Numbered from the stretch's first letter, positions 38,301 to 60,806 are shown. The stretch: 64,000 nucleotides of DNA from Thermoanaerobaculia bacterium (GCA_050747885.1 JBOGJO010000034.1:69-64068); one strand, 5' to 3'. Numbers and translations: made by a program. The notes: generated from the letters alone by a model not told the origin.

Positions 38301-38647
38301 CCGGAGCATCCCCGGAGCTCGGGGACGAGGCGAGCGCCATTGAAGCGCGTCTTCAGGCCATCGATCTCGAGCTTCGCGGCGACAAGGTCGGCAGGGCCCG
38401 AAATTACCCGACGGCGCCGTCGATCAACGACCGCGTCGAGACGATCGTGGGGACCCAGTGGAACGCGACGTCCGCGCCCACGAAAACGAGCCTGGACGAC
38501 TACTCCATCGCGGCGGATGAATTCGCGGGCGTTCTAGGGAGGCTCTGGACTCTCGTCGAATCCGACTTCAAGAAGCTGGATGACCGGATGGAGTCGGCGG
38601 GCTCGCCCTGGACGCCGGGGCGCTTCCCGGAATGGAAGCCGGAATAG
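35357..38647 (+). CDS. Large secreted BNR/Asp-box (sortilin/VPS10-like beta-propeller) repeat protein
   Basis: GTG at 35357 after AGGAGA. Signal peptide. At least 11 SxDxGxTW-type Asp-box repeats ([39 protein letters not shown], and others). Confidence 0.8.
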
Positions 38648-38886
38648 GGGCTCGCTCGGGCCCGAGGACCCGCCGAAAGACTGTGGGCCTCACCGCCCTG
38701 CTTGCGCTCCGGACGTACCCCGCTTGCGCGCACCGCAAGTGCGGATAGGGTTACGACTTGCGGACCGCGCGCAAGCAGGGCCCCACCGTCCCTCGCCGCC
38801 GTCGTTCGGCCCGCACCGGAGGGGGCCGTAACCTGGAGACGCTCGGGCATTGGCTTTGCATTGCCTCTCGAACGGGGAGGAGCGCT

Positions 38887-39081
38887 ATGGCAATGGTGAA
38901 TCTCGAACCCTCTTTCGAGGACTATACGGGCATGAACGAAGGGGAGATCGTCGAGGGCGGAGTGATCGCCCTGTGCCCCCGCTGCGGACGCCTTGGCCGC
39001 TTCAGCGATCACAGCGGCAAGAAGGTCTACGAGCACCGGCGGACGAGCCCGGAGGAAACGCGCGAGACCTGCGTCCTGTAG
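38887..39081 (+). CDS. Small hypothetical protein (64 aa) with CxxC
   Basis: ATG preceded by a GGGGAGGAG Shine-Dalgarno sequence. Translation MAMVNLEPSFEDYTGMNEGEIVEGGVIALCPRCGRLGRF…. No family recognised. Confidence 0.35.
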   Translation: MAMVNLEPSFEDYTGMNEGEIVEGGVIALCPRCGRLGRFSDHSGKKVYEHRRTSPEETRETCVL

Positions 39082-39120
39082 AAGGACGCGATTCGATAGC
39101 ATGGGAGTGGAGGTGACGAC

Positions 39121-39633
39121 ATGCCTGCGAAAAAGGCGAAAAAGAAGACGAAAAAATCCGCGCCGAAAAGGGCCGCGCGCCGTCCGGTAAAACGCGCGGC
39201 AAAGAAAATACAGGCGAAACGCGCGCCGAAGAAGAAGTCCGGAGCGCTCGGTCTGACCGACGCGTCGCCGTCGTTCACCGTCGACGACCTCGAGAAGAGC
39301 ATGGCCTGGTACCGCGACGTCCTGGGGTTCTCGATCGACGAACGCTGGGAGCGGGACGGAAAGCTCATGGGCGTGTCGCTCCAGGCGGGCGGCGTGACGT
39401 GGATGATCGGCCAGGACGACTGGCAGAAGGGCCGCGACCGCCGGAAGGGCGTTGGATTCCGGATCTACTGCGGCATGAAGGGCGACGTCGACGCGTTCGC
39501 GGCGGCAATCAAGGCGCAGGGCGGCCTGCTCGACACCGAGCCGACTGACCAGCCCTGGGGAAGCCGCGACTTCTCGATCTCGGATCCGGACGGCTTCAAG
39601 ATCACGATCGGAAAAGAAACGCGCAAGCGCTGA
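39121..39633 (+). CDS. VOC (glyoxalase/bleomycin-resistance fold) protein with an N-terminal Lys/Ala-rich histone H1-like tail
   Basis: N-terminal about 45 aa PAKKAKKKTKKSAPKRAARRPVKRAAKKIQAKRAPKKK. Then a VOC domain (…FTVDDLEKSMAWYRDVLGF…, …DPDGFKITI…). Confidence 0.7.
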   Translation: MPAKKAKKKTKKSAPKRAARRPVKRAAKKIQAKRAPKKKSGALGLTDASPSFTVDDLEKSMAWYRDVLGFSIDERWERDGKLMGVSLQAGGVTWMIGQDDWQKGRDRRKGVGFRIYCGMKGDVDAFAAAIKAQGGLLDTEPTDQPWGSRDFSISDPDGFKITIGKETRKR

Positions 39634-39823
39634 CGGTCAATCGCCGTGTGAGTCGCTTCCCCCTCACTCTTCCCTCCCGCGCTAACCGGTCGTCATAAGG
39701 CTGCCCCCAAGGGGAGAGGGTTAAGCGGGTTCGCATTTCCGCCGCTCCCCCTGCGGGAGAGGCCGGCGCGTAGCGGCGGGTGAGGGGTGGTCGCCGGTTC
39801 CGTCATGTAAACTGCGCCACCGG

Positions 39824-39900
39824 GCGCCCGTAGCTCAACTGGATAGAGCATCAGACTTCGGATCTGAGGGTTGGGGGTTCGAATCCCTCCGGGCGCACCA
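39824..39900 (+). tRNA. tRNA-Arg (anticodon TCG)
   Basis: Manual fold: acceptor GCGCCCG/CGGGCGC, D-arm GCTC…GAGC, anticodon stem TCAGA/TCTGA with loop cTTCGga, T-arm GGGGG-TTCGAAT-CCCTC, 3' ACCA. Confidence 0.85.
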
Positions 39901-40155
39901 AATTTCGCTCCACTTCGTTCCGCTTAGGCTTCGCGCGTCCTTCGCTGCGCTCGGACAAATTTGGACGTCTGACCTGGGGGAAGCTTCCCCCATCTGAATC
40001 GAGTTGTCCTTCAGGTCGTCGAGGGAATCCGCGGGGGGCTGGAACGGATGCCGCTCGACTCTGAAGCCTGGCACGCTGCCGAGGGTCGGGCAGGCTTCCT
40101 TGTAAATCGGGTTCCGGTTTCCGCTGCCCGAGGAAGCGGCCGTCGGCGACGTGAC

Positions 40156-40243
40156 GACGATGAAAATTCCCGAGACCCTACGGGAGCAATATTACGGCGA
40201 TGGAAACTCGCTCTTCTTTCGCTGGATTGCGGCGAGGTGACTG
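40156..40243 (+). repeat. 88-bp direct repeat copy A (encodes a 26-aa peptide MKIPETLREQYYGDGNSLFFRWIAAR)
   Basis: 86/88 identical to 48439-48526. Both differences are synonymous third-position changes in the peptide frame. Confidence 0.8.
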
Positions 40244-40251
40244 GTGAGGAA

Positions 40252-40437
40252 CTAAACCCGCATGAGTTGCGGGGGGTTGTCGTAGTGGCGGTCGCGGTCA
40301 TGCAGCACAGAGTTGCTCTGGAGGACGAGCGCGGCGACCCACATGTCGTTGGTCGGAATTGGAGTTCCGGCGACGCGGAGCTGTCGGAAGAGCGACACGA
40401 GGCGTGCGGTTTTCTCTTCGCCGCGGCAGAGATCCAC
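40252..40437 (-). pseudogene. Truncated PIN-domain (VapC-like) toxin remnant
   Basis: Translation …GTPIPTNDMWVAALVLQSNSVLHDRDRHY… matches the VapC C-terminal ND.WIAA…L.T.D motif. Only about 60 aa are present. Confidence 0.4.
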
Positions 40438-40464
40438 GTGGCGGTTCGTGTCGAGTCCTGAGCA

Positions 40465-40935
40465 TCACTTTCGCCCCGTCGGCCTTGAGAGATGGGCGGC
40501 GCAATTGATGAACCCCGGCTCACGAATCGAGCCGCAAATCGGACACAGCCCGGCCTTTCGTCGTTTCGCCACCCGCTGTCTCGCGTAGGCGCGCTCTTGC
40601 TCGCGATGAAAACGGCAAAGCCGAGTTCCCGTCTTCACAGCTTTGCCGCACCTCTCGCAGCGCCCCGCCCTTGCGCGTTGGCGCTTCAGGGCACGGCTGA
40701 AGTCGCGCATTTCCTTGAGATGTCTCTTGCAGCAAACGTGAGGCTTAGAGGCTGGGCGGGCGCACTTGACGCACCGCCCGACTGCCTTCAGCTCTGATGT
40801 TCTGCGGCGCGAATGCTCGGCGCGCATTCTCCGGTGCTCGCCGCAGACCGACAGTCCGCGAAGACGCTTCTTCGTGCAGTGAGAGCACCGGTCAGAAAGC
40901 TTGCGTCGGTGGATCGCTTTGCGTCTGGAGGTCAT
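40465..40935 (-). CDS. Basic protein with four tandem C-x2-C-x9-11-C-x2-H zinc-finger-like repeats
   Basis: Repeats CSHC…CGEH, CVKC…CCKRH, CERCG…CRFH, CPICG…CAAH. Each is followed by an Arg/Lys-rich stretch. Codon usage is atypical for this genome. Confidence 0.6.
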   Translation of the reverse strand: MTSRRKAIHRRKLSDRCSHCTKKRLRGLSVCGEHRRMRAEHSRRRTSELKAVGRCVKCARPASKPHVCCKRHLKEMRDFSRALKRQRARAGRCERCGKAVKTGTRLCRFHREQERAYARQRVAKRRKAGLCPICGSIREPGFINCAAHLSRPTGRK

Positions 40936-40953
40936 GGCCTCTCGCACTCGCCG

Positions 40954-42063
40954 TCATCGCCTCTCTTCTATCGGGGGCGGCGCCAAGGGCTGAACCGGGC
41001 CGGAGATCGATGGTTCCACGTTCTGAGGAGGCGCGATCTCACTTGATCGTTCTGCTTCGGGGCGCAGCTTGCCGAGAAGAGAGGAGAAAGACTTCGCCGT
41101 GTCGTCGGAGCCAGCCGGAAACCTTCCGAGAAAGAACTGGATCTGGCTCTTTGAGGCCGTGGCCGGAATGACCACCACCCGGGCGGTGGCGAAGACTTTC
41201 GATAGACTCGCTCGATAGAGCCTCGCGCGGCCTGCCGCCGGGGAGCGAGCCACCTGGTCCGCAATCGCCAGAAAAGTCTGCCGTTCAGCCCGCGCCGCCT
41301 CGGTGATCTCCTTGTTCCGGCTTTCTGCCTGTCGGACGTCGGTCTCGGCCTGCGCGCGGGCAAGTGAAAGTGCTTGCGACGCTTTTCCCTGAGCCTCGCT
41401 CACCCGCCTTTCTCTCCAGGCGGCCGCGTCGGATACTGCGTTGAAGGCGCCCGCCGCCTCCGCGGGTGGGCTGACCGCCGCGAGGGAGACCTGAAGCAGA
41501 ACGATTCCCGTGCGTGTTTGCTCGGCTGCGGCCTGAGCGGCGCTTCGGACAGCTTCCTGCAGAGCGCTCTTTCCCGTGGTCAGCACTTCGTCGACCGGCA
41601 AAATGCTGATCTCGCGGGCCAGCGCGGCAATTGCGGAATCGAGCAGCACGCCGTTGGGGTCGTATTGCGCAGTACGAAACAGGCCGGCATCCTCGATCCG
41701 GTACTGCAACTGTCCGCTGATCTCGACGAGATTTTCGTCGCCGGTAATGAACTCCAGCGTTTCTGTCTCTCTTCTGTTTAAAGGAAGCGATCGCACCGCC
41801 CCGACCGCTACGACCTCGAATTCCTCCATCAGGGGAATAGCAAAGGTCGCCCCCGGCGACACTCGGCCGTCCACGAGCTTCCCGAGCCTTCGCCGGAGAC
41901 CCCGCTCGTCATTGCGGACCACCCGGATTCCCGAAGCCATGAGAACGAGAAGGGCGAGAAGAAGACTCGCGAGCGCGCCTATGCGTCGGCGCCGATACAG
42001 GGCGGCTGCGGCCGCCCGAATCCTGACGACGTGACGGGGCTGGGTCAATTCGGGTTCGTTCAT
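40954..42063 (-). CDS. SPFH/Band-7 family protein (HflK/HflC-like)
   Basis: N-terminal TM. SPFH core …LEFITGDENLVEISGQLQYRIEDAGLF…. Coiled-coil Ala/Glu-rich C-terminus. Start overlaps the upstream stop (ATGA). Confidence 0.8.
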   Translation of the reverse strand: MNEPELTQPRHVVRIRAAAAALYRRRRIGALASLLLALLVLMASGIRVVRNDERGLRRRLGKLVDGRVSPGATFAIPLMEEFEVVAVGAVRSLPLNRRETETLEFITGDENLVEISGQLQYRIEDAGLFRTAQYDPNGVLLDSAIAALAREISILPVDEVLTTGKSALQEAVRSAAQAAAEQTRTGIVLLQVSLAAVSPPAEAAGAFNAVSDAAAWRERRVSEAQGKASQALSLARAQAETDVRQAESRNKEITEAARAERQTFLAIADQVARSPAAGRARLYRASLSKVFATARVVVIPATASKSQIQFFLGRFPAGSDDTAKSFSSLLGKLRPEAERSSEIAPPQNVEPSISGPVQPLAPPPIEERR

Positions 42064-42956
42064 GGGTGATGGGCGCCCGTTCCCGGCCCCTCATTGAGCA
42101 CCTTCAGCATCGGACTCTTCGAGTCGAGAAAGATTGTGGTCTCGGCTCCGATCGACTTTTCGTACCCGTGCAGGGCTCGAAGAAACTCGTAGAGCCGCGG
42201 GTCGCGCCGATACGCCTCCCCGACGAGGCGCGTGGCTTCGGCCTCGCCCTGCCCCCGAAGAATCTCGGCGTCTCGCGCCGCTTCGGCCAGGAGTGTGCGT
42301 CGCCTCTCGTCGGCCTCGGCTTCGATCTTCTGACCCGCCTCTTCCCCTTCGGAGCGAAGGCGCAAGGCGATCCGGGCTCGCTCAGCGCGCATTCTCGCGA
42401 CGATCGCTTCCCGGTTCTGGCCCGGAAAATGGACCTGTGAAAGCCACGCCGCGTCTGCCTCAACGCCGAGACTCGCCCTCGCGAACGCGTCCACCCTCTG
42501 CCGGACTCGTTCGGTGAGCTCCGCCGTCCGAACGGTGCCCGGCTGGGTGGAGAAGAAAGCCTCCGATGGCATGCGCCCGGCGGCTGATCCGAGGGAGGAG
42601 ATCGCGAGATCGATCAACCGGGCTTCGGCACCGTCGACGTCCCGGACTCGTTGGAGGAAGAGAGCCGGGTCGGAGATTCGCCAGAGCAACGAAAGCTCCA
42701 GCACGAGGTTTTTCTTGTCGGATGTCAGGAACTCCGTCGGCGGAATCCGAAACAGTATCCGGCGGCGATCCAGCCGGAACACCGACCCGATCGGCCTCGG
42801 GAGAATCAGGTGCGGCCCCGGCGCGAGAGGGCCGGAGACGAGGCGCCCGAACCTCGTTGCGAGGGCGACCTCGGTTTCGTCGACAATGACCAGGGAGTCG
42901 AGCGCCAGTGCGACGATCGCCCCGACGAGCAGGAACGCGAGTGTCGTCTTTTTCAT
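42060..42956 (-). CDS. SPFH/Band-7 family protein (HflC-like)
   Basis: MKKTTLAFLLVGAIVALAL… (signal anchor). …FLTSDKKNLVLELSLLWRISDP…. ATGA overlaps at both ends. Confidence 0.8.
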   Translation of the reverse strand: MKKTTLAFLLVGAIVALALDSLVIVDETEVALATRFGRLVSGPLAPGPHLILPRPIGSVFRLDRRRILFRIPPTEFLTSDKKNLVLELSLLWRISDPALFLQRVRDVDGAEARLIDLAISSLGSAAGRMPSEAFFSTQPGTVRTAELTERVRQRVDAFARASLGVEADAAWLSQVHFPGQNREAIVARMRAERARIALRLRSEGEEAGQKIEAEADERRRTLLAEAARDAEILRGQGEAEATRLVGEAYRRDPRLYEFLRALHGYEKSIGAETTIFLDSKSPMLKVLNEGPGTGAHHP

Positions 42957-45247
42957 GGAGGTGCGGGTCCTTTCATGTCGGTCTTGGGGGCAGCCGGCGT
43001 GCCCCAGTCGAAGATTCTCGGCTCGACATTGGCGGGGAGGATGACCTTCGGCCGTCCGTGCAGCGCACGCTCGATCGTGTTCCACCAGAGACGGAGCCGT
43101 GAGGCTGCGAGCCGGCCTGCAGCGGCCGCCGCCTGGAGCTGGAAGGAATGCCCTTCTCCTTCGGCCCGCAGGATCGTCTCCGTGCGATCCGACCGGGCGG
43201 CGGCCAGCTCCGTGGACGCCTGAGCGCGAGCGAGAGGAAGCGCGGAGTCGAGCTTTCCGCGGGCCTCGAAGATCCTGCGTTCTTTCTCCTCTGCGGCGCT
43301 GCCGACATCCCGAAACGCTGCGACCGTCTCTTGCGGTGGATGGAAGTCCAGTATGTTGACCGCGCCAACCGAGAGCGGAATGCCACTGCGGTCAAGCTCT
43401 TCCTGAAGTCGAGCACGCGCGGTTTCTTCGAGCTCTCCCCGCTGCTCTGTCAAGGACGTGTCGATCCCGCGTGTCGCGAGAAGGCTCTTGACGACGCTCA
43501 AGAACGGCGGGCGGACCGCGTCGATACCGTCGCGGGTTCGAAATGCCAGCTGGTACGGGTCCCGTACCCTCAGGTGGAGCGCGGCTTTGATCTCGACCAG
43601 ATTCTGATCGCCTGCCACGAACGATGCTTCTCCGGGCATGTCGTCCGAGCTCGTGTAGATCGAGTGCCAGTATTCAGAAAAGGGATCCCAACGGATTCCC
43701 TGATAATCGGCGACCGGCTTCCCACGGAACCCCACATCGACCTTGAGAAGTTGCTCCGCCGGAACGACCCTGAAGGCGCCCAGCGGCGGCGGCAGCGCCC
43801 AGTGCCATCCCGCGGGGAGCGCGAATGGATTCGCACGGCCGAGAGTCTCTCGAATGGCGACCGAGCCCGGCGGGACACTGACGAATCCTCGCGCCATCCA
43901 TAGCAAGACCGCGACAGCGCCGCCGGCGCCGATCAGACGAACCTTGTTCGCGGTCTCGGCTCTGTGGAGGCCCGACTGAAGACCTCGCCGAGCGGTCTCG
44001 GGAACGAGACCTTGCACGGCTTCACGGATCTCCCGGCGTCCTTGCTGCCATCCCACACGAAGCAGTGACACGAAAAAGACAATTCCAAAAAGGACGCCGA
44101 AGAGAATCTCCCAGCCCGAAACGTTCTCCGTCAACAGCGGCTGGCCGGTATATCCGGGCCCGGTCAATGAGCGGCGCAGCCCATGAAGAATCAGCCCGAA
44201 TGCCAGCGAAATCGAAAAGCACGAAATCAGGAGGGCCCGAATATATTTTCGGCCGAAATGCCGACGCAGGACGAGAAGGCTTGCTGGATTCGTGATGGGC
44301 CCGGTCAGGAAAATCACGAGCGCCGCGGCGGGGAAGAGGCCTTTGGCGACAAGGACGGCCGCCAGCGGGATCGTCCCGGAGGCACACACGTTCAGGGGGA
44401 TGGCGATGAGCGCCGCGAAGACGAACTGGCCGAACAGTCCCCCGGGAATTCGGGACGCAAAATCCTGCGGCAGAAGCGAGGCGAGAAAACCGGATAGCAG
44501 AAACCCGAAGAGGAGCGGCCAGGCTATCGCGTCGAGGAGCTCTCCGAAGCCATAGAGTGAGACTTCTCGAAGGGCTCGGGCCGCCTTCACAAGGAGCGGG
44601 CTCGCGGTCGCCGGCCTCTTATTGGCGCCCGGCGCTTCGCGCTCCACCGCAACGTCCGAAATAGCGACCGGCTGCGGTCGCGCCCGGAAGGCTACCCATT
44701 TGCGGCGAATGAGGTGTAGCCAAAGATTCATGCGCCGCCATCCGCGCGGCAACTTCCGCCGGGAGTCGAGACCCGGCGTCATTGCATCCGCCGTCGCGCT
44801 CGGCGCATCAGGAGGTCCCCAGGCTGCCGAGGCGATAACAAGAACCGCGCCGAGAATCGCCGCGCACAACCCGGCAACGACCCTGGCGATGGCGAAGCCC
44901 CAACCAAAGAGACCCGCTGTGAGAAAGACCGCATCCGGGCTGTCTTCCGGCGTCGAGACCAGGAACGCAGCCACACTCTCGGGCGTGGCGCCCTGCTTTC
45001 TGAGCTCGAGCGCGACCGGGAGAGTGCCGCAGGAGCAGATGGGAAGCGCTACCCCCGTCATGAGCCCGGCTCGAACGGATCGCAAACCTGGCGAGGATAA
45101 GCTTCGCCGAATTCGTCTCCTTCCGCTGACGAACCGGTGGAAGAAACCTGCGACGATGAGGCCGGCAAGCAGGTAGCCGCTGCTTCTCGCGAAAAGTTGA
45201 AGCGAGAGCGAAAGCGTCTGCTCGACGAGGCCCAGAAAGCCGCTCAC
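42953..45247 (-). CDS. Fusion protein: COG0701/DUF318-type permease (ArsP/SO_0444-like, CSCG motif) plus a C-terminal SPFH (HflK-like) domain
   Basis: N-terminal about 330 aa polytopic region with the GVALPICSCGTLPVALEL motif. C-terminal …FVAGDQNLVEIKAALHLRVRDPYQLAF… SPFH domain and coiled coil. Confidence 0.7.
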   Translation of the reverse strand: MSGFLGLVEQTLSLSLQLFARSSGYLLAGLIVAGFFHRFVSGRRRIRRSLSSPGLRSVRAGLMTGVALPICSCGTLPVALELRKQGATPESVAAFLVSTPEDSPDAVFLTAGLFGWGFAIARVVAGLCAAILGAVLVIASAAWGPPDAPSATADAMTPGLDSRRKLPRGWRRMNLWLHLIRRKWVAFRARPQPVAISDVAVEREAPGANKRPATASPLLVKAARALREVSLYGFGELLDAIAWPLLFGFLLSGFLASLLPQDFASRIPGGLFGQFVFAALIAIPLNVCASGTIPLAAVLVAKGLFPAAALVIFLTGPITNPASLLVLRRHFGRKYIRALLISCFSISLAFGLILHGLRRSLTGPGYTGQPLLTENVSGWEILFGVLFGIVFFVSLLRVGWQQGRREIREAVQGLVPETARRGLQSGLHRAETANKVRLIGAGGAVAVLLWMARGFVSVPPGSVAIRETLGRANPFALPAGWHWALPPPLGAFRVVPAEQLLKVDVGFRGKPVADYQGIRWDPFSEYWHSIYTSSDDMPGEASFVAGDQNLVEIKAALHLRVRDPYQLAFRTRDGIDAVRPPFLSVVKSLLATRGIDTSLTEQRGELEETARARLQEELDRSGIPLSVGAVNILDFHPPQETVAAFRDVGSAAEEKERRIFEARGKLDSALPLARAQASTELAAARSDRTETILRAEGEGHSFQLQAAAAAGRLAASRLRLWWNTIERALHGRPKVILPANVEPRIFDWGTPAAPKTDMKGPAPP

Positions 45248-45283
45248 ATCATCTCGGCGTCCGGGGAAGCGTGTCCGTCATCG

Positions 45284-47716
45284 TCAGAACGTGTACTTCA
45301 CTCTCGCCGCCAGCGTCCTCGGCGGAATCACGTGCGTTCCGCCGAAGGTCGAGAGCACGTTGTAGACACCTTTCTTATCGAAGGCGTTGAGTAAGTCGAC
45401 CTGCAACGAGACGGGAACTCCGTAGCGCGTTAGATCGGCCCCGGCAGAGAAATTCCAGATCGTGCGGGGCTTGATCCGGTTTGGATCGAGGTTCGTGTTC
45501 GACGTGAAGTTGATGTATGGGTACGCGAAGGCGTTGTCCGGGTCCTGCAGGATCGTTTGGTCCGCCCCGGTGACGAGCCCGGAATCGTAACGGGCCATCG
45601 CCGCCGCCCAGAACCCGGACGATCCAAAGGCATAGTTCAACCCGCCCTGAATTTGGAGTTTCTCGTCGTGGTCGATGACGAAGGGCCCCCCGTTGACGGC
45701 GTCGAGCGCGCCCGAGTCCAGGAAGAGGCCGCCAGCCAGCGGCGGCACGTAGATGGCGCGCGTGTGGCCGACCGAAAGGTACCCTCGAAAGCCATCGATG
45801 GGAGCCGAGTCCAGGCGCACGTTCCACCCGTGGAGTTTTCCTTGCGAAAACGCCAGCGGAAAGACGATCCCCGTGTTCTGGAACTGGTCCTGGTCACCCG
45901 CAAATTTCGAGTCGCGCCGCCAAAAATCGACATCCAGGCGGACATAGGGGCCGACTTGCTGCTGGAGTCCCAGGTCATACGCGTCCTGCCGCTCCGACGG
46001 GACGAAGAGGAGACCGTCGCCGAGCGCTCTCGACTGCTGCACGTCCGGCGGGGCCAGCGCCGCGGCCTCTTCCGAGGAGGAGAAGAGGATGTTCTCGTAC
46101 TCCGGTGTCTCGAAGATCCGGTTGTACGAGGCTCGAAAGACGGACTTCGTTTGGGAAATGAAGTAGCTCACACCGACTCTCGGCTCGAGCTGGGATTCTT
46201 TCAGTGGAAAGCTATTATGGTCATAGCGCAGTCCGATCTGTGCCGTGAGATTTCCGAGCCGGATCGTGTCCTCCGCGAATCCGGCCAGGTAAGTGACCGT
46301 CTTGGATTGTTCGAACCGGAAGACTGCGCCCCCTCGCGTGAGGTCATAAGGCGCGAGATTGGGATTGTAATCGGGCGACGAGGGATCGTTGAGGTTCGGG
46401 TCGGTGATCCCAAAGGAGAACCGCTCTTGAATGGGATAGCTCTTCAAGATGGCTCCGAACTTGAGCTCGTTCGCGTTGCCCACCTGAATCGAGAGTGTCG
46501 GCTGGACGCCGTAGTTATCGAGCGACCGCTTGGAGCTCGTGATGACCGACGGGTCGTTGGGCGAACCGCGGTACGTGAACCGGTTGTTCCGGGCGAAAAG
46601 CGTCGTGTCGAGCACGGTCGTCGAGCCGAAGACGTGTTGCCATCCGAGGTTCGCGTTCCAGTCGGTCGTCTCGACGGTGTTGTCCGTATCCGCGGCCTGC
46701 TGTGTGAGCGTGTTCGTCACATCCCGATTGGTCCTCCCGATGAGTCCCGAAAGTCGGAAGCTGTCGCCGCCGCCTGGCGTCGTTCTGTCGAGGCGTAGGA
46801 AGGCCCGTTCGGTGTCGCCGTGGTTGTGAAAATTGTCAAAGTTGACGGGATCGAGGAACCGATCGGATTTCGAGCCGTCCACGGACCCGAAGTACCCGAG
46901 GGTATCGGAGCCCCCTCCCACCGAGGCCCCGGCGTCGTAGGTGCCAAACTTCGCGCCGCCCGCGTGGACGTCCCCGTGCGGGCCGCCGGTTCCGAGGCCC
47001 GATTTCGTCGTCAGATTGATGACCGCTGCAATCTTCTCGCCGTATTCGGCCGGCACGTTCCCGTAGATGACCTCCGCGGACTGAAGAATGCCGGGGTCGA
47101 TCGAGTTCGAAAACGTCGTGCCGATCTGGTCCGTGATCGGCTGGCCGTCGACGACGTAGCTCTGCTGGCTGTGCGCGCCCTGAAAGTGGTAGCGCCCGTT
47201 CTCGTCGGCGGAGAAACCGGGCGCCTGGATGACAAGCGCTTCCATGCCGCGCGACGGAGTCGCCGCAGGTGCGTGCTCGATGAACGACTTGTCTATGTCG
47301 ACGTGCGATTGCGACGAATCGGTCTCAAGGACCGCCGCCGGCTTCTCCGCCTCCACCTTCACCGTTGCTGTCACCGATTCGAGAGCGAGGGTCACGGGCT
47401 GATCGATCGGCGCGGTGCTCCGCACGTCGATTGCGAGGTGTTGCGTCGCGAAGCCCTGCACCTCGACGTGGAGTTCGTAGGGGTTGAACGGAACGTTGAA
47501 GAATGAGTATTTCCCGTCCGCTTCCGTTACGGCCTGCGCCTTGAACCCGGTGATGTCGTTGCGAAGGACGAGCGGAACGCCCCCCATCGGTTTCCCGTCG
47601 GGTCCGGTTACCGTCCCGCGAATCGAACCGGCGGCAAGCGCCGCGAGACAGTTGTTCCTACCCAGGACAAGCGAGACGGACAAAGTCAAAATCGATATCA
47701 GGATGCGATTTCTCAC
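45284..47716 (-). CDS. TonB-dependent outer-membrane receptor with N-terminal CarboxypepD_reg-like domain
   Basis: GTG start after GGGAGGAAA. Signal peptide. …GTVTGPDGKPMGGVPLVL…TEADGKYSF… is a CarbopepD_reg fold. Plug and 22-strand-barrel length (810 aa). C-terminal …KYTF. Confidence 0.85.
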   Translation of the reverse strand: MRNRILISILTLSVSLVLGRNNCLAALAAGSIRGTVTGPDGKPMGGVPLVLRNDITGFKAQAVTEADGKYSFFNVPFNPYELHVEVQGFATQHLAIDVRSTAPIDQPVTLALESVTATVKVEAEKPAAVLETDSSQSHVDIDKSFIEHAPAATPSRGMEALVIQAPGFSADENGRYHFQGAHSQQSYVVDGQPITDQIGTTFSNSIDPGILQSAEVIYGNVPAEYGEKIAAVINLTTKSGLGTGGPHGDVHAGGAKFGTYDAGASVGGGSDTLGYFGSVDGSKSDRFLDPVNFDNFHNHGDTERAFLRLDRTTPGGGDSFRLSGLIGRTNRDVTNTLTQQAADTDNTVETTDWNANLGWQHVFGSTTVLDTTLFARNNRFTYRGSPNDPSVITSSKRSLDNYGVQPTLSIQVGNANELKFGAILKSYPIQERFSFGITDPNLNDPSSPDYNPNLAPYDLTRGGAVFRFEQSKTVTYLAGFAEDTIRLGNLTAQIGLRYDHNSFPLKESQLEPRVGVSYFISQTKSVFRASYNRIFETPEYENILFSSSEEAAALAPPDVQQSRALGDGLLFVPSERQDAYDLGLQQQVGPYVRLDVDFWRRDSKFAGDQDQFQNTGIVFPLAFSQGKLHGWNVRLDSAPIDGFRGYLSVGHTRAIYVPPLAGGLFLDSGALDAVNGGPFVIDHDEKLQIQGGLNYAFGSSGFWAAAMARYDSGLVTGADQTILQDPDNAFAYPYINFTSNTNLDPNRIKPRTIWNFSAGADLTRYGVPVSLQVDLLNAFDKKGVYNVLSTFGGTHVIPPRTLAARVKYTF

Positions 47717-47798
47717 GGGTTTCCTCCCTCAAATGTGAACCCCTGCGCGCGCGGCGCAAGCCGCGAGCGATACCGTTGTCTATTCGTTCGACGGGGGA

Positions 47799-48209
47799 TC
47801 AGATGAGGGAGGGAGGACCGCGGGCAAGAGATTCGGAACGGAATCCAGAGAGTTGAGGACGATCCTGGGCGGCGCGAACAGCTTCAACTGTTGCGAGAAA
47901 GATCCGCGCGGGGGGTTGAACTTGAATGCCGGTGAGGTGCTGACGCAGACAGGCGAGGCAGGGTTCGACTTCGACGATCAGGTCCGGGTGCCAGTGGGAA
48001 GCCGTCGGGTTGGCGCAGGAGATCTCGTGAACCTCGCGGACCGTGTTCGAGTCGTCAAAAAGCCATTCCGCCGTCAGCGAGCTTGAGTGATGATGGGTCG
48101 CCGTTGCGACGACCACCTGGGAGAGCAAGACAAGAAGCGTGATCCCAAACCGGAGAGAGGTTCGCGTATTTCGGCAGGCTTCACGCCGGCTCACACGGTT
48201 GGTGGTCAT
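47799..48209 (-). CDS. Small secreted His/Cys-rich protein (possible periplasmic metal-binding protein, DUF2946-like)
   Basis: Start MTTNRVS…. TM/signal segment LRFGITLLVLLSQVVVATA followed by THHHSS and CLACL. Lies directly upstream of the TonB-dependent receptor. Confidence 0.4.
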   Translation of the reverse strand: MTTNRVSRREACRNTRTSLRFGITLLVLLSQVVVATATHHHSSSLTAEWLFDDSNTVREVHEISCANPTASHWHPDLIVEVEPCLACLRQHLTGIQVQPPARIFLATVEAVRAAQDRPQLSGFRSESLARGPPSLI

Positions 48210-48438
48210 TCCACCGGAGGATACCACTCCCGGGACGGCGATTCTCTGTGTCCACATGCGTTTTTGCGTCGTCGCTCTCGATCCGATCAGACCGAGGACC
48301 CAGAATAGGCCTACGACGGCCCGGTCGTGACTTACGGCACGATGATGATGCCGGGGCCCTTGACCACCGAGCAGTTGCTTCCGCCGTTGTCGCAGAGGGA
48401 AGCCGTGTCGTCGTACGGCTTGCCGCTACTCGCGTCCT

Positions 48439-48526
48439 GACGATGAAAATTCCCGAGACCCTGCGGGAGCAATATTACGGCGACGGAAACTCGCTCTTCT
48501 TTCGCTGGATTGCGGCGAGGTGACTG
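48439..48526 (+). repeat. 88-bp direct repeat copy B (same 26-aa peptide ORF)
   Basis: See copy A. Followed 8 nt later by the tRNA 3'-half repeat. Confidence 0.8.
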
Positions 48527-48533
48527 AAAGACG

Positions 48534-48578
48534 TCAGACTTCGGATTTGAGGGTTGGGGGCTCGAATCCCTCCGGGCG
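48534..48578 (+). repeat. Direct repeat of the tRNA-Arg 3' half (att-like remnant)
   Basis: cagacttcggatTtgagggttgggggCtcgaatccctccgggcg matches the tRNA sequence at 43 of 45 positions. Confidence 0.75.
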
Positions 48579-48587
48579 GTTCGCGCC

Positions 48588-49517
48588 TTACGGCTCTTCG
48601 GACTGAGGCGGCTGTCCCCGCGAGGCCGCCAGAAGCGCTTTCGTCAGTGCTTCCGGCTCATCCGCTGCAACGAGAAGACGCGAGAAGGGTCGCTGCCATG
48701 CGGGGAAGAGCCCGTCTCCGCGTACCGGCTCGCGCGTATCGATTTCCACGATGCCGCTGCCCGTGAGCGTCATGAGGAGCGCTCCCCGCGCATACAATTT
48801 CAGCTCTCGCCGGGTGTCGAAGGGCCTGACGACTCGGGCAGTCTTCAGGAGCGCGGGAGAGAACACGACCCGGTTGAGCGCGCCGCGCTGGAGGTCGACG
48901 GACGTCGGCGAAATGCGATGCGGACGGCGCTGCGCCGTCTCGACGAGGCCGAGAATCCAGAATAAGCCGTAGACGTCGAGGGCCGTGATGGCCCGGTGAA
49001 GAAACCAGAGTCGGCGCGGAATGACCGCTGCGAGAAGCAGCACGTCGGCGGGAACCGTGAAGACGAAGAGCACCGGCAGAAATCGGATGTAGGCGTCGCG
49101 GACGTATCCGAACCCTTCCGAGTGTCGCCGGTACGGCGGAAAGAGAATCCGGAAGCCAAGGCCGATCATCACGAATTCCAGCGCGAGCGCTCGCGCGACC
49201 GGCTGCGGAACAAACGCGGACAGGGCTCTCTCGATTCGTCTCTCCGGCAGGTCACCTTTGACAGTTCGGCGACGATAAATCGCCAAACCGCCCCAGACGA
49301 CAAGCGGAATTTCGATCGCCGCGGCCATGGGCGCAAGAGTGCGGCGTGTCGCCCGCCCGGAGAGAAGAACGACGAGCTCGCAGAGAATGACCGCTGGAAG
49401 AATCAGTCGAGTCGCGGGCAAATCGCCACGCGCCGCGCGCACGGCATCGACGAGGACTCGCACGAGGAGCAGGGCCATCAGGATGAAAAGGGCGACGTGC
49501 TCCCAGGAAAGTGTCAC
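48588..49517 (-). CDS. Hypothetical polytopic membrane protein
   Basis: 309 aa with at least 6 hydrophobic helices. No family recognised. Confidence 0.5.
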   Translation of the reverse strand: MTLSWEHVALFILMALLLVRVLVDAVRAARGDLPATRLILPAVILCELVVLLSGRATRRTLAPMAAAIEIPLVVWGGLAIYRRRTVKGDLPERRIERALSAFVPQPVARALALEFVMIGLGFRILFPPYRRHSEGFGYVRDAYIRFLPVLFVFTVPADVLLLAAVIPRRLWFLHRAITALDVYGLFWILGLVETAQRRPHRISPTSVDLQRGALNRVVFSPALLKTARVVRPFDTRRELKLYARGALLMTLTGSGIVEIDTREPVRGDGLFPAWQRPFSRLLVAADEPEALTKALLAASRGQPPQSEEP

Positions 49518-49698
49518 GCCGAAGGTCCTCTCGTCACGTTCACGGCCCGGTGCTAAACCTCTCGCGGGGCAGAGGGCGTCGAGCGAAGGAAGGACGGCTC
49601 ATGCGGACAGGTGAATCGGTGGAGCATGGATCTCGCGGAACGACCGGCGGTCGCCCCGCGCGGCCCCGGCGGTCGCGCGAGACGAGCCTGGCCGTGAG

Positions 49699-50130
49699 TT
49701 ATGGCACGATGATGATTCCGGGATCCTTGACCACCGAGCAGTTGCTTCCGCCTTTGTCGCAAAGTGAAGCCGTGTAGTCGTACAGCTTGCCGCTGCCCGC
49801 GGCACCGGTCGGCAAGCCCGAATTGCACTGCTGGTGAGTCCCGCTGCAGTCCTTGATGTTCTTGAACGCGTCGGGATCGGCGAAAACGATCTTGACGTTG
49901 GGCATGTTCGGGTCGATCGACCTCCACATCACGGTGTTGCCGTTCTGCTTGGATATGTAAGCGAGCTTGCAGCTCACCTGTGCGCCCACGTCGATTTTGT
50001 GATCCTGGGGGTCGGTGTTGCAGGGCGTCTTCCAGTCGGAGGTCTTCGCCGCCGCCATTGCGGACAGCGGGAACGCCGCCAGAGCGGCTGCGAAGACAGC
50101 CGAGCGGAACATCGTGCGATTCGGGTCCAT
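49699..50130 (-). CDS. Small secreted Cys-rich protein (hypothetical)
   Basis: ATG at 50130 with an AAGGAGGAG Shine-Dalgarno sequence. Signal peptide MDPNRTMFRSAVFAAALAAFPLSAMA. 8 Cys. A diverged copy of its 3' end lies at 48331-48433. Confidence 0.6.
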   Translation of the reverse strand: MDPNRTMFRSAVFAAALAAFPLSAMAAAKTSDWKTPCNTDPQDHKIDVGAQVSCKLAYISKQNGNTVMWRSIDPNMPNVKIVFADPDAFKNIKDCSGTHQQCNSGLPTGAAGSGKLYDYTASLCDKGGSNCSVVKDPGIIIVP

Positions 50131-50144
50131 GGCTCCTCCTTTTC

Positions 50145-52796
50145 TCAATGGGGCTCTTCCTTCCCCCTCGTCAGGGCGATCGCGAACCTCTTGTCGGCCC
50201 GGAGGCCGGCAAATTCCGGGTCTTTTTCCACGAGCGCCGGGGGGTATCCTGATTGTACCGCCTTGCCGAGCTCGTCGAAGGCCGCCGGAAGGTCGTGGGC
50301 GATCACGTAAACCACGGAAGCCTGGTAATCGACGTCGGGGTCGCCGCGCCCGGCCTGCGAGGCCCGCCGGATTTCCGCGAGAGCCTCGGTCGGTTTGCCG
50401 GTTTTTGCGAGCGAACTGGCGAGGATCGAGCGGACGAGCCCGTCGCCCGGGTTGCGCTCGAGCTCCTTGCGGCACAGTTCGAGAGCGCGTGAATAGGCCC
50501 GCCGGGAGCCCTCCTGCCGCCCCGGTGTCCAGCGGAGGGCGTCTCCCAGGTTCGACCAGACCCGGTAGAGGTCGGGCGTGAGCTTCGTGGCTTCCTCGAA
50601 AGCGGCCGCCGACTGGGCGTAGTTCCCGAGAAAGAACTCGACGGTCCCGATGTTGGACTGGGCGAAGCCCGTGGGCTGAAGCGCCAGGGAGCGCCGGAAC
50701 GCTGCGAGAGCCTTCTCGAGATCGTTGGCGAGGAAGTACGCCCCGCCGAGGTTGGAGAGGGCCATCGCGTTGTCCGGCGTCAGCTCGGTCACGCGGCGGA
50801 ACGCCGCGGCGGCCTCTTCATATCGGCCCCGGGCGTAGTAGAACCCCGCGAGCTTGCTGTAACCGCCCCAGTACGTGGGCTGGAGATTGAGCGCCTCCCG
50901 GAACGCCTTTTCCGCGTCCGCGTCCCTGCCGGCGGCTCCCAGGGCTCGCGCCAACCCGAGCCTCGCCTCGAAGCTCGTCGGCGACGCGGCGAGCGCCTGT
51001 TGAAACGCCTCGACCGCGCCCGCGGCGCCCCCGGAATGGAGCCGGAGCTCGCCCAGCGTGATGTCCACTTCGATCAGCGACGGCCCCAGCTCGCGCGCGC
51101 GCCGCGCGGCGGTTTCCGCCTTCGAGGTATCTCCGGAATCGTGCGTCAGGTCGAAATGCTCGAGATATGCCCGGGCGAGCGAGGCAAACACGTAAGGCGA
51201 TCGCGGCGCCTCCTGCGACAGGGTTTCCAGGATGGCCGTGGCATTTTCGACCGACTCGCGGGTGTTGTAGTGCTGGAGAAGGCCGACCGCCTTCAAGTAG
51301 CGTTCCTGGTCCGTCCCGGAGGGCAGGCCCGACGCGGCGGAGACCCGTCGAACGGCCGGAATCGATTCCGCTTCGCTCACCTTCGCAACGAGGCGGTCCT
51401 GAAGCTCGAACAGGTCGGACGCGGAGCCGTCGAGCGTGCCGCCCGAGAGCTCCGCTCTCTTGCGCACGTCCCACAGCGAATACGTGATCCGCACCCGATC
51501 CCGGCTTCTCTGCACGGCGCCCTGGAGGAGCTGCGACGCGCCGAGGTCGCGGGCTGCGTTGAGCGGATCCGGCTCCTTCGCGGAAGCGGCAATGACCGCC
51601 GCGGGCGACACGACCTGGAGCCCGGTCGACCCCCCGATGGCCGAAGACACCGTCTCGACGAGGCCCTCGCCGAGAAGTTTTCCGTCCGGCGCGCTCGAGA
51701 GGTCGCGAAACGGCAAAATCGCCAGCAGCCTCGCGGGAGGGATCGCGGAGGCCGTCGGGGGCGCGGGCGAGGAGGCCGGCGGCTCCGCCTTTCGACGCGG
51801 GCGAAGAGTGATCACCAGCGCCGCCCCGGCGACCAGCGCCGCCGCCGCGCCGGCGGCGATCTTCGCGGATTTGGATAAGCGCCGCGGCGCCGGCAGGGGA
51901 ATCACGCTCCGGGACGTCGGACGGCGCGGGTCGATCTCCAGAAGCAGCTCTTCGATCGCGAGGCGCGCGTCGCCGATGTCGCGCAACCGCTGCGCGGGAT
52001 CTTTTTGAAGGCAGCGCGCGAGCATTTCGCGCAGAGCGGGAGGCGTTTCGGGGGGAAGCAAATCCCATTCCGGCTCCGACCGAAGGATCGCGGCAAAAGC
52101 GTCCGGCACGGAGTCTCCCGTGAAGGCGCGACGTCCCGAGAGACACTCGAAAACGATGCACCCGAAGGCCCAGATGTCGGTGCGCTTGTCGATGGCCTTG
52201 CCCCGGGCCTGTTCGGGGCTCATGAATTCGATCGTGCCGAGAATCACGCCGGGGCGAGTTTCGTCGAGGGCCGCCGTTGTTTCGCGGGAGAGGCCGCCCA
52301 CGACTTCCGAACGAAGGCCTCCCGCGATCTTGGCCAGGCCGAGGTCGAGGATCTTCGCGCGGCCGTCGGGCGTGACCATGACGTTGGCGGGCTTGAGATC
52401 GCGGTGAACGATTCCGCGCTCGTGGGCCGCTTCGAGGGCCTCGGCGATCTGGCGGGCGATCCGCAGGGTCTCCCGCATCGACAGCGGGCCGCGGAGATGG
52501 TCGGAGAGAGTCTTTCCCTCGACGAGCTCGAGGATGAGGTATCTCTGATCGCCGGCCTCTTCGGCGCCGTAGATGGCGGCGATGCCGGGATGGTTGACGG
52601 AAGCCAGGAGGCGGGCCTCCCGTTCGAAGCGGGAAATCCGCGACGCGTCGCGGCCGGACGACTCGGGGAGCACCTTGATGGCCACCTCGCGCCCGAGTTT
52701 CGTGTCGATCGCCCGGTAAACCTCGCCCATGCCTCCGGCCCCGAGAAGGTTTCGGATCTCGTAGGAGCCGAGTCGGGTGCCTGGTTCTAGTTCCAC
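50145..52796 (-). CDS. Ser/Thr protein kinase with TM segment and C-terminal TPR repeats
   Basis: …LGAGGMGEVYRA…AIK…, HRDLKPANVMV, DLGLAK. Mid-protein TM. Multiple TPR-like repeats in the C-terminal half. Confidence 0.85.
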   Translation of the reverse strand: MELEPGTRLGSYEIRNLLGAGGMGEVYRAIDTKLGREVAIKVLPESSGRDASRISRFEREARLLASVNHPGIAAIYGAEEAGDQRYLILELVEGKTLSDHLRGPLSMRETLRIARQIAEALEAAHERGIVHRDLKPANVMVTPDGRAKILDLGLAKIAGGLRSEVVGGLSRETTAALDETRPGVILGTIEFMSPEQARGKAIDKRTDIWAFGCIVFECLSGRRAFTGDSVPDAFAAILRSEPEWDLLPPETPPALREMLARCLQKDPAQRLRDIGDARLAIEELLLEIDPRRPTSRSVIPLPAPRRLSKSAKIAAGAAAALVAGAALVITLRPRRKAEPPASSPAPPTASAIPPARLLAILPFRDLSSAPDGKLLGEGLVETVSSAIGGSTGLQVVSPAAVIAASAKEPDPLNAARDLGASQLLQGAVQRSRDRVRITYSLWDVRKRAELSGGTLDGSASDLFELQDRLVAKVSEAESIPAVRRVSAASGLPSGTDQERYLKAVGLLQHYNTRESVENATAILETLSQEAPRSPYVFASLARAYLEHFDLTHDSGDTSKAETAARRARELGPSLIEVDITLGELRLHSGGAAGAVEAFQQALAASPTSFEARLGLARALGAAGRDADAEKAFREALNLQPTYWGGYSKLAGFYYARGRYEEAAAAFRRVTELTPDNAMALSNLGGAYFLANDLEKALAAFRRSLALQPTGFAQSNIGTVEFFLGNYAQSAAAFEEATKLTPDLYRVWSNLGDALRWTPGRQEGSRRAYSRALELCRKELERNPGDGLVRSILASSLAKTGKPTEALAEIRRASQAGRGDPDVDYQASVVYVIAHDLPAAFDELGKAVQSGYPPALVEKDPEFAGLRADKRFAIALTRGKEEPH

Positions 52797-52856
52797 GGAA
52801 TCCTTGGCCGCAATTCTAGCTCGGGCGCACGCGCAGGTCCGCGTTCCCGAAGCAGC

Positions 52857-53570
52857 TCACCAGATCCGGGTGTGGGGGAAAACTCCCCAGCTTGCCAGCC
52901 CCCGGGCGATGAGCAGGAGGCCGAGGAGACCGAACGCGGCCGCCGCAAAACGGCGCAGGCGCAGGAACGCGCCGGCGGCGCGGCCCGAAATCGCGAGGAG
53001 GAGGATGGCGGGAATCGTTCCCGCGCCGAAGACGAGCATCGTGAGCGCGCCCCCGAAGGCCGTCGCGGAGGCCGCGGCGCGGCTGGCGGCGGCGTAGACC
53101 ATGGAGCAGGGCAGGAGCCCCTGGACGACGCCGAGCAGGAGCGCGGCCGCGTAGGGGGGGGCCTGAAACGCCTCGCGGGCGCCGGCTCGCGCCAGCCGAT
53201 CGATGCCGACCGCCGCGATCAGGCGTTCCGGCCCCGGAAGGAGCCCTCCCGTCGAAAGGGCGAAGAGCAGGGCGAAGGACCCGGCCAGGATCGACACGGC
53301 TCCCGCGACACCCGCGCGAACGCTTGCGGCTTCGCCGATTTGTCCCAGCGCCCCGGCGATGGCGCCGATCGCCGTGTACATGGCGATCCGCCCGCCCAGA
53401 AACAGACTCCGAAGGACCGCGCGCGTTCCCGCCCCGCCATGGCCGAGCCGAGCGGAGCAAATCGCGACGTACGGACCGCACATTCCGACGCAGTGGGAGC
53501 TTCCGAGGAGCGAGGCGAGAAAGAGCAGCGACAGGTCTCCCGGGGGAAGGGCGTGGTGGTGCATGGGCAC
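52857..53570 (-). CDS. DsbD_2 / TauE-SafE-like membrane protein with HCxxMCGP motif (cbb3 oxidase-associated)
   Basis: MPMHHHALPP… then …SSHCVGMCGPYVA…. 6 TM. Positioned immediately after ccoS. Confidence 0.6.
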   Translation of the reverse strand: MPMHHHALPPGDLSLLFLASLLGSSHCVGMCGPYVAICSARLGHGGAGTRAVLRSLFLGGRIAMYTAIGAIAGALGQIGEAASVRAGVAGAVSILAGSFALLFALSTGGLLPGPERLIAAVGIDRLARAGAREAFQAPPYAAALLLGVVQGLLPCSMVYAAASRAAASATAFGGALTMLVFGAGTIPAILLLAISGRAAGAFLRLRRFAAAAFGLLGLLLIARGLASWGVFPHTRIW

Positions 53571-53577
53571 CGGGGGT

Positions 53578-53747
53578 CACGTCTTTGCGGGCGGACTCGC
53601 CTCGTCGCCTTTCGGCAGGGAAACGATCTGATACTTGATCTTCTCGACGTCTCGAAACTGTCCCGTTCGGATCGCCCAGAGGAAGACGCACCACGCCGCC
53701 AGTCCCATCAGGAACGCCATCAGGAAGAGATACAGGGTGATGTCCAT
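53578..53747 (-). CDS. ccoS: cbb3-type cytochrome oxidase maturation protein CcoS
   Basis: Manually translated 56 aa: MDITLYLFLMAFLMGLAAWCVFLWAIRTGQFRDVEKIKYQIV…. CcoS-like (W.VK.GQ(F/Y)DD). Not in the ORF track (too short). TAG-G-ATG coupling to ccoO. Confidence 0.65.
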
Positions 53748-53748
53748 C

Positions 53749-55479: not shown

Positions 55480-55482
55480 GGC

Positions 55483-60803: not shown

Positions 60804-60806
60804 CGG

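Follow-up and report, generated by a model that had tools for sequence, protein, structure and literature searches.

A pair of 88-bp repeats in a Thermoanaerobaculia genome as probable 3'-terminal remnants of a membrane glycosyltransferase gene on both sides of an inserted operon

In E. coli K-12, the 3' end of a protein-coding gene is present as direct repeats on both sides of the e14 element, and also of phage 21, in the icd/icdC arrangement, as presented in the part of PMC13626634 that cites Hill et al. 1989 (PMC210168). A similar geometry is found in a stretch of 64,000 nucleotides from a Thermoanaerobaculia bacterium (GCA_050747885.1 JBOGJO010000034.1:69-64068), hereafter called the window, in which an inserted block lies between direct repeats of a protein-coding gene's 3' end, with one copy joined to the gene, the other being a stand-alone C-terminal pseudogene fragment, and the differences between copies being mostly silent as in icd/icdC. 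However, unlike icd/icdC, neither an integrase nor any element-type gene is found here, the gene body has been lost by deletion in the meantime, and the insert terminates with an ordinary gene that is truncated, its cargo being a chromosomal-type operon. Due to these differences, site-specific recombination can be regarded as a candidate only at this locus. The second group of described systems to which the locus can be compared is the tRNA-associated genomic islands, which it resembles in having an intact tRNA at one of its ends, with the 3' part of this tRNA directly repeated at the opposite end (43/45), in the variable gene content between tRNA and repeat, in a slightly lower GC content and in a toxin-antitoxin remnant. 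It differs from such islands in that no tyrosine or serine integrase gene is present inside the island, the repeat stops before the terminal CACCA of the tRNA, and the glycosyltransferase remnant by the tRNA is syntenic with the cluster of a relative and not obviously foreign. Duplicated gene-tail scars of this type are as such ordinary.

The repeat pair and the gene family of its parent

The two plus-strand copies of the repeat, each of 88 bp, are located at 40156-40243 (copy A) and 48439-48526 (copy B). The sequence-only reading had described them as 86/88 identical, as starting 4 nt before an in-frame ATG and ending 3 nt past a TGA, and as encoding one identical peptide with only synonymous mismatches. 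All these features were confirmed, with a self-blastn match of the copies at an E of about 1e-38, the peptide MKIPETLREQYYGDGNSLFFRWIAAR encoded from ATG to TGA in both, and the two mismatches (40180 A/G and 40201 T/C) each placed at a third codon position. No third copy was found within 64 kb by self-blastn. Their described neighbours were likewise recovered, since 8 nt separate copy A from the stop codon of a minus-strand VapC remnant, and, 7 nt downstream of copy B, the 3' half of tRNA-Arg is present again in a copy of 45 nt. Contigs with 100% identity to the window are present in a second assembly made from short reads (Logan, SRR27067715), and two of them, L006 and L004, end at 40214 and 48497, respectively, i.e., at the same offset, 58, inside each copy. 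Breaks at a shared offset are to be expected if the repeat truly has two copies whose right flanks differ, and it is on the right flanks of the copies that this support bears. The repeat ends 3 nt past the TGA because the flank following the stop codon is different in 5/5 contexts (copies A and B and the relatives L002, L003 and L090). The probability that two random substitutions both prove silent is 0.05-0.10, and the finding of only synonymous differences hence has small statistical weight and is within chance.

In related Acidobacteriota, the 88-mer sequence constitutes the last 26 codons of a membrane protein of 470-520 aa. When 185,579 genomes were searched with the codon-degenerate motif YYGDGNxLFFRW, one Acidobacteriota MAG was obtained, and there the sequence ends a long membrane-protein gene. 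The homologs P0001-P0016 (370-527 aa) have the C-terminal motif in common, and the fragments of the window align at their extreme C-terminus. The parent family comprises at least 2,573 clusters at 50% identity, with most alignments reaching the last residues and the tail motif kept in many metagenomic members. Comparison with the conserved C-terminal tail of this family, QYYGDGNSLFFRWIA, indicates that the 26-aa "peptide" corresponds to this tail, with its "start" Met as an internal residue. It is highly probable that the 88-mers represent leftover, non-functional 3'-terminal fragments of one large membrane glycosyltransferase gene.

The parent protein has the features of a polytopic membrane protein and of the GT-C fold, and no Pfam or NCBIfam model recognises it. 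Its sequence identity to the GT-C fold glycosyltransferases AftA, ALG12, ArnT and PglB/AglB is only 8-13%, and as compared to these enzymes the C-terminal tail QYxGxxxSFFxRYLA is a feature of the parent family. The presence of GT2 and UDP-galactopyranose mutase genes in the neighbourhood supports the predicted lipid-linked-donor transferase activity, and the parent is considered to be a putative polytopic glycosyltransferase of roughly 470-520 aa, encoded by the last gene of a glycan-synthesis cluster. As a by-product, a large glycosyltransferase-like family that is unannotated in current domain databases has thus been recognised.

Organization of the interrupted locus

The left landmark of the variable region is an intact tRNA-Arg with anticodon TCG (39824..39900, plus strand; ARAGORN; Rfam tRNA 71.5 bits), which matches the tRNA-Arg of the syntenic relative L002 at 100% identity, and whose 3' half of 45 nt from the anticodon stem to the acceptor stem (39851..39895, plus strand) is repeated at 48534-48578 with 96% identity (blastn). 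It is followed by a spacer of 205 nt (39901..40105) containing an 18-nt palindrome at 39975-39992 (self-blast), without a match to L002, L003 or L090 and with an ORF that has no Pfam or PHROG match. Next is remnant A (40106..40240, plus strand), which includes copy A, comprises the last 44 codons and the stop of the GT-C-fold glycosyltransferase gene and is directly preceded by an in-frame TAA at 40103-40105. Using tblastn, the L001 protein aligned to 40112-40231 of the window (72.5% identity, E 1e-14), with the remaining body of the gene not being present in the window, and blastn revealed 75-80% identity of remnant A to L002, L003 and L090. Homology of copy A to the gene of the relative extends 45 nt, or 15 codons, further upstream of the ATG. 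Convergent with remnant A is a C-terminal remnant of the PIN toxin VapC (40252..40437, minus strand, 61 aa; NCBIfam TA_toxin_VapC, E 7e-4), which covers only profile positions 66-118 of 125 and is truncated at the N-terminus, hence falling short of a complete PIN domain, and a terminator-like hairpin is located at 40257-40273.

The block between the repeat copies (40244..48438, 8,195 bp) has a GC content of 63.2% vs 65.3-65.8% in the flanks, and synteny with L002 shows it to be an insertion relative to the relatives. Most of it is occupied by a cargo operon on the minus strand (40954..48257; Pfam), which encodes two SPFH/Band-7 proteins, an ArsP-permease/SPFH fusion, a TonB-dependent-receptor-like protein of 810 aa and a 152-aa protein. 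Its orthologs in L007 and L009 (79-86% aa) lie elsewhere, in a metal-homeostasis neighbourhood. The gene order in L002 is glyoxalase, the identical tRNA-Arg, an 8-kb glycan cluster (GT2, GLF and others), the glycosyltransferase gene under consideration, a kinase and MoaA. Of a glycan cluster of this type, the window retains the last 135 nt only. The glycosyltransferase gene is intact in L002 and the block is absent there, with the operon ortholog on another contig, L009, of the same assembly accession.

At the right end of the block, a 3'-terminal fragment (48315..48434, minus strand; 34 codons, stop and 17 nt) lacking its 5' part derives from a paralog of a small secreted protein gene, whose full-length member (49699..50130, minus strand, 143 aa, signal-peptide-like N-terminus) represents the source family, the identity to 49681-49801 being 87.6% (blastn). 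This secreted-protein pair exhibits a share of silently changed codons similar to that of the 88-mers (4/34 vs 2/26), together with 6 nonsynonymous codons. A novel joint at 48435..48438, where both homologies end, connects the 5'-truncated secreted-protein fragment on the minus strand to the 5'-truncated glycosyltransferase tail on the plus strand, i.e., copy B, which contains the last 27 codons of the same glycosyltransferase gene as well as its stop, and no gene body adjoins it. The adjoining tRNA-Arg 3'-half copy (48534..48578, plus strand, 43/45 identical) takes up the greater part of the 64 nt that separate the stop of the glycosyltransferase gene from that of a convergent gene. It reads ...GGGCG|GTTCG and not ...GGGCGCACCA at its end, lacks the terminal CACCA and hence does not reach the native tRNA 3' end. 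It is called as a tRNA neither by ARAGORN nor by Rfam and is probably an old att-type scar. The convergent gene forming the right flank of copy B (48588..49517, minus strand) encodes a 309-aa membrane protein, as judged from its ORF and composition, and the exact product was also called on the Logan contig L004.

Origin of the duplicated tail

In this arrangement, copy A is the gene end in situ, the gene body having been deleted together with the remainder of the cluster, and copy B is a bare tail with the truncated paralog fragment on its left and the tRNA-Arg 3'-half scar on its right. The best reading is an insertion into the 3' end of the gene followed by deletions, leaving gene-fragment scars, and taken jointly the view that gene fragments and not micro-ORFs flank an insertion is held with high confidence. 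The specific recombination route is proposed more tentatively, with somewhat less than an even chance of being correct. DNA of a diverged haplotype, or an excised circle, carrying a glycosyltransferase 3' end of its own and, behind it, the VapC/operon block would have recombined into the 3' end of the resident gene by Campbell-type or homology-facilitated illegitimate recombination. One illegitimate joint, that at 48435-48438, would suffice, and duplication of the tail on both sides of the insert would be the automatic result, with later deletions removing the gene body and trimming other genes. The silent-only differences would fit an origin while both tails still resided in functional genes, or chance. 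Under the gene-fragment model, the position of the left boundary beside the Met codon is a coincidence, with a likelihood of roughly 5-10%. No donor haplotype with the order glycosyltransferase gene, VapBC and operon was seen, and an older event, distinct from the single-joint route, is needed to explain the tRNA-half copy next to copy B. Since no close relative with an intact, uninterrupted version of the locus was found, the order of events was deduced from a relative ~80% identical in DNA. The locus illustrates how, in an uncultured lineage of Acidobacteriota, the DNA downstream of a tRNA gene has been rebuilt, with the loss of a glycan-synthesis cluster, the gain of a metal-associated operon, and toxin-antitoxin and tRNA scars left behind.

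The sequence-only reading had also raised, as secondary possibilities, that the pair stems from a recent duplication or that a nested element has the copies as its terminal repeats, and these survive, as the copies bracket an 8.2-kb block that is inserted relative to the syntenic relative. One rival explanation is a decayed integrative element that inserted site-specifically into the glycosyltransferase 3' end and brought its own replacement 3' end, with the 88-mers as attL and attR and copy B as the displaced original tail. This would reproduce the icd/icdC pattern (PMC13626634), with the 3'-end direct repeat at both insert ends, one copy continuous with more of the gene, the other reduced to a bare C-terminal fragment at the opposite insert end, silent differences between the copies, a toxin-antitoxin remnant in the insert and absence of the insert from L002, in which the gene is intact. 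However, it is considered unlikely, since no integrase, excisionase, transposase or any other recombinase domain, hence no integrase next to a presumed att site, is encoded in sizeable ORFs of 34-64 kb, the cargo is a conserved chromosomal operon and not a set of element-type genes, and phage and plasmid collections gave no match. Moreover, the truncated ordinary gene at the right end of the insert directly abuts copy B, and this explanation hence requires a minimum of one additional deletion that extends exactly into the repeat. By analogy with e14 in icd, the 88-mers might more specifically be attachment sites of an unrecognised Thermoanaerobaculia integrative element that targets the 3' end of GT-C genes, brings a replacement tail and mobilises the TonB-like/SPFH operon, with its recombinase lost or located outside the contig, and this version is given a slightly lower likelihood still.

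No more probable than the decayed element is a history in which two related islands integrated one behind the other at tRNA-Arg, with a full-length glycosyltransferase gene beside attR at the end of each, and independent deletions took most of each gene together with the middle att site, leaving two tails. It would account for the intact tRNA-Arg and its 45-nt, 96% identical 3'-half copy 8.7 kb away, right after copy B, and silent-only divergence fits two once-functional genes. A 17-nt tRNA 3'-end repeat after a VapBC pair in L002 further suggests an integration hotspot at this tRNA. However, more events are needed, namely two integrations and at least four deletions, one of which must end within the 7 nt between the stop of copy A and the lost att site and two of which must have left no more than the last 50 codons each. 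Besides the absence of an integrase, it speaks against this history that a displaced native tRNA end should carry the terminal CACCA, which is missing from the tRNA-half copy.

The principal proposal of the sequence-only reading, a stand-alone 26-aa protein under purifying selection in the form of a micro-ORF cassette, leader or toxin peptide, would have fallen if the 88-mer were the tail of a longer gene elsewhere, and it is refuted by its being the 3' end of a long conserved gene in related Acidobacteriota. That the ORF is nevertheless a genuine small protein, including an exapted tail peptide, with two copies under selection, is very improbable. Like bacterial small proteins and type I toxin or leader micro-ORFs, it is a short 26-codon ATG-to-stop ORF that is hydrophobic or aromatic in its C-terminal half and occurs twice in the vicinity of toxin-antitoxin debris. 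In favour of a small protein, both ORFs are intact, their products are identical, the only two differences are silent and the repeat boundaries hug the ORF. Unlike such micro-ORFs, it demonstrably forms the end of a large protein in other genomes, as the sole genome match and every protein homolog have the sequence at the C-terminus of proteins of 370-527 aa, with no stand-alone homolog among them, and the homology of copy A runs on upstream of the ATG. Neither a Shine-Dalgarno-like sequence in the 15 nt before either ATG nor a promoter-like site near the copies (scanned for the sigma-70-type consensus only) was observed, an antisense RNA partner is likewise lacking, the region has no family match in Pfam, NCBIfam or PHROG, and two silent changes arise by chance 5-10% of the time. 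Caution is hence warranted, as an ATG/TGA-bounded ORF in two copies with silent-only differences can be debris of a large gene, and one comparison with a relative suffices to distinguish such debris from a micro-ORF.

Least probable of all is duplication of the 88-mer for a non-coding function, as a structured RNA, convergent-transcription terminator or protein-binding arm site, for although each copy lies between convergent gene ends and contains a weak terminator-like hairpin on the minus strand, this hairpin (5-bp stem, 8-nt loop) is at the level of consensus noise, fold energies are like those of shuffles (z -0.96 to +0.55), Rfam gives no match and the conservation in relatives tracks the reading frame of the protein tail.

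The 88-bp repeats as glycosyltransferase gene tails

Two 88-bp direct repeats, copy A (40156-40243) and copy B (48439-48526), lie exactly as placed by a sequence-only reading of this DNA, with 86 of the 88 positions identical, and each carries an ATG-to-TGA frame encoding MKIPETLREQYYGDGNSLFFRWIAAR, the mismatches at 40180 and 40201 being third-position and both silent. With E about 1e-38 when the window is blasted against itself, the match is far above chance, and no third copy was found in the window at the DNA or the peptide level. Contigs of the Logan short-read assembly of SRR27067715 match the window at 100% identity, and two of them, L006 (window 40214-43185) and L004 (window 48497-51467), end at the same offset, 58, within each copy and have different right flanks, hence the repeat was not created by one assembler's error.

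The same reading had proposed a stand-alone 26-aa micro-ORF under purifying selection. This proposal was overturned, since elsewhere the 88-mer ends a long gene, an outcome which the reading itself had named as refuting. A codon-degenerate DNA pattern for YYGDGNxLFFRW, run on 185,579 genomes, gave one match, in an Acidobacteriota MAG, comprising the last codons of a long polytopic membrane-protein gene that ends ...STMHIPQALRQQYYGDGNSLFFRWIAPP followed by the stop codon. Homologs of this GT-C-fold membrane glycosyltransferase are 370-527 aa long, the closest C-termini being ...PRMGIPQTLREQYYGDPTSLFFRWLAPP and ...PAMGIEQKLREQYYGDGQSVFFRWIALP, and QYxGxxxSFFxRYLA is kept in more distant ones. 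A codon-degenerate pattern of the same kind found no match in the JGI metagenome collection, and a profile-based scan of that collection retrieved distant relatives only (28-36% identical), which are informative on the tail motif and not on the history of the locus. Because the peptide forms the C-terminus of long homologs, the methionine taken as its start is an internal residue.

Each of the two 88-mers is the tail of a gene. Copy A remains joined to the surviving part of the glycosyltransferase gene, as similarity to the relative's gene extends 15 codons 5' of the ATG (FRFPLPEEAAVGDVTT-MKIPE...), up to 40112, with an in-frame TAA at 40103-40105 upstream of this homology, while copy B comprises the last 27 codons only; the rest of the gene is absent from the window. 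The sequence following the stop differs in all five contexts compared (copies A and B, the syntenic relative's locus L002, and the glycosyltransferase loci L003 and, in another relative, L090), so the repeat stops 3 nt beyond the TGA simply because the gene ends there. Judging from its fold and gene context, the parent protein would transfer sugar from a lipid-linked donor; the relative's cluster closed by its gene includes a GT2 transferase and UDP-galactopyranose mutase. In L090, the full-length glycosyltransferase gene is preceded, at a distance of 24 nt, by an IS-type transposase (rve domain, 429-1361).

Synteny and the block between the copies

A region of 21 kb around the glycosyltransferase gene in L002 is syntenic with the window. 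The common left flank (window 38244-39900) comprises the end of a BNR/sortilin-like gene, a 252-aa gene, a glyoxalase and tRNA-Arg(TCG), the last being 100% identical between the two. In the middle, VapBC in L002 is followed by a 17-nt repeat matching the 3' end of the tRNA and then by the 8-kb cluster of which the glycosyltransferase gene is the last member. All that the window has here is a 205-nt spacer plus the 3'-terminal 135 nt of this gene. On the right, the L002 kinase and MoaA correspond to window 52068-52817 and 62910-63980, respectively. This synteny places copy A on the tRNA side and copy B on the kinase side and identifies the 8,195 bp between them (40244-48438) as extra; this block is an insertion. 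The L002 stretch at 2862-3759, with VapBC between tRNA-Arg and the 17-nt repeat (E 0.018), resembles a very small island, about 800 bp long, sited at this tRNA.

The block contains a VapC C-terminal remnant (NCBIfam E 7e-4), which is unrelated to the VapC beside the tRNA in L002, and a minus-strand 160-aa Cys-rich ORF (40465-40947) with repeated CxxC-like spacing. A search of 5.8 billion proteins yielded no homolog of this ORF, and it is perhaps not a gene at all, as the Logan gene caller picked opposite-strand ORFs in this interval, which may hence be non-coding debris. The remainder is an operon (40954-48257) encoding two SPFH proteins, an ArsP-permease/SPFH fusion, a TonB-dependent-receptor-like protein and a 152-aa protein; exact-product look-ups of the 152-aa and 160-aa ORFs gave no match. 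Orthologs of this operon occur in two relatives with 79-86% aa identity (L007 9534-17202; L009 9497-12898, from the same assembly accession as L002), within a conserved metal-homeostasis neighbourhood of RibF, CzcCBA, a P-type ATPase, ZIP and an ECF sigma factor. Their location elsewhere, together with GC and GC3 slightly below those of the flanks, marks the block as a relocated or acquired segment. The TonB-like/ArsP-SPFH/SPFH operon thus stands beside CzcCBA, ZIP and the ECF sigma factor in the two relatives and beside tRNA-Arg debris in the window; in L009 the receptor is present and the three SPFH genes are absent. A plasmid or phage origin is unsupported, with nothing similar in the plasmid or phage collection searched.

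The right-end patchwork and a proposed route

Copy B lies within a patchwork. A fragment of a paralogous secreted-protein gene (48315-48434, minus strand), comprising its last 34 codons without the 5' part, has 87.6% DNA identity to the full-length gene at 49699-50130 (minus strand), whose small Cys-containing product ends ...CSVVKxPGIIIVP and has no family annotation. The coding part of this truncated paralog (48332-48434, minus strand) lies 1.3 kb from the full-length gene, and 6 of 34 compared codons differ in amino acid. A four-nt joint (48435-48438) then fuses two divergently oriented, 5'-truncated genes, the left edge of copy B being the truncation point of the fragment, so that a single joint explains both repeat families. 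A mechanical 91-aa ORF (48248-48523, plus strand) reads through into copy B in the same frame; it has no family match, and the portion before copy B is simply the antisense of the fragment.

Seven nt past copy B lies a 45-nt copy of the tRNA-Arg 3' half (48534-48578; 43/45 identical), followed after ten nt by the stop of a convergent 309-aa membrane-protein gene, and this copy occupies nearly all of the 64-nt gap between the two convergent stops. Since the terminal CACCA is missing, it does not represent a native tRNA end that was displaced intact, and it may be either the relic of an old att site or a hairpin terminator.

The route requiring the fewest events, put forward tentatively, has the resident locus recombining with DNA of a diverged haplotype or an excised circle. 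The incoming DNA would have brought a glycosyltransferase 3' end of its own, followed by the VapC/operon block and then part of a secreted-protein gene; pairing by homology in the gene tail plus one illegitimate joint would leave the tail duplicated on either side of the insert. Deletions at a later stage would have taken away the cluster and all but 135 nt of the gene, as well as the VapC N-terminus, and a separate, probably older, att-type event would be needed for the tRNA-half copy. Such a route could presumably be Campbell-type or homology-facilitated illegitimate recombination. Silently changed codons make up similar shares of the tail pair (2/26) and the secreted-protein pair (4/34), and amino-acid changes are confined to the latter (six codons), which fits pairs of like age whose constraint differed while still functional.

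Alternative routes and known systems

In their arrangement the 88-mers match both gene-3'-end duplications at the edges of insertions, as at icd/icdC, and decayed tRNA-linked islands. Site-specific insertion of a decayed e14-like element into the glycosyltransferase 3' end, with the 88-mers as attL/attR, is an unlikely origin, as there is no recombinase in 34-64 kb and it would take one more deletion that stops precisely at the repeat. Tandem tRNA-Arg islands, each carrying a full glycosyltransferase gene, are likewise improbable, since more events and some tight coincidences are required. The window departs from both classes in having no integrase found, and from the island class also in a repeat that stops short of the tRNA end. 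The units starting at the 88-mers have only their ends in common, since the VapCs are unrelated, as are the 152-aa and 309-aa proteins. Simple tandem duplication from tRNA core to 88-mer was rejected, because core and 88-mer stand in the opposite order in the region of copy B and the 7 nt that precede the copied core are unlike the tRNA. An unrecognised integrative element targeting the 3' end of the glycosyltransferase gene is quite doubtful.

A genuine 26-aa protein is very improbable, as stand-alone homologs are lacking, neither copy has a Shine-Dalgarno sequence, a scan for the sigma-70-type consensus gave no promoter-like site, homology extends beyond the ATG, and two silent changes would arise by chance with p about 0.05-0.10. 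A binding site, or a structured RNA, which was rejected, is unsupported and can hardly be entertained. The 88-mers are scars, for which the evidence shows no function, and the finding is an ordinary one.

A second large indel between the window and L002 genomes is the kinase-MoaA interval (window 52800-62900), about 10 kb vs about 1.2 kb in L002, which in the window encodes a cbb3-type cytochrome oxidase (FixN/FixO-like), cytochromes c and a P-type ATPase.
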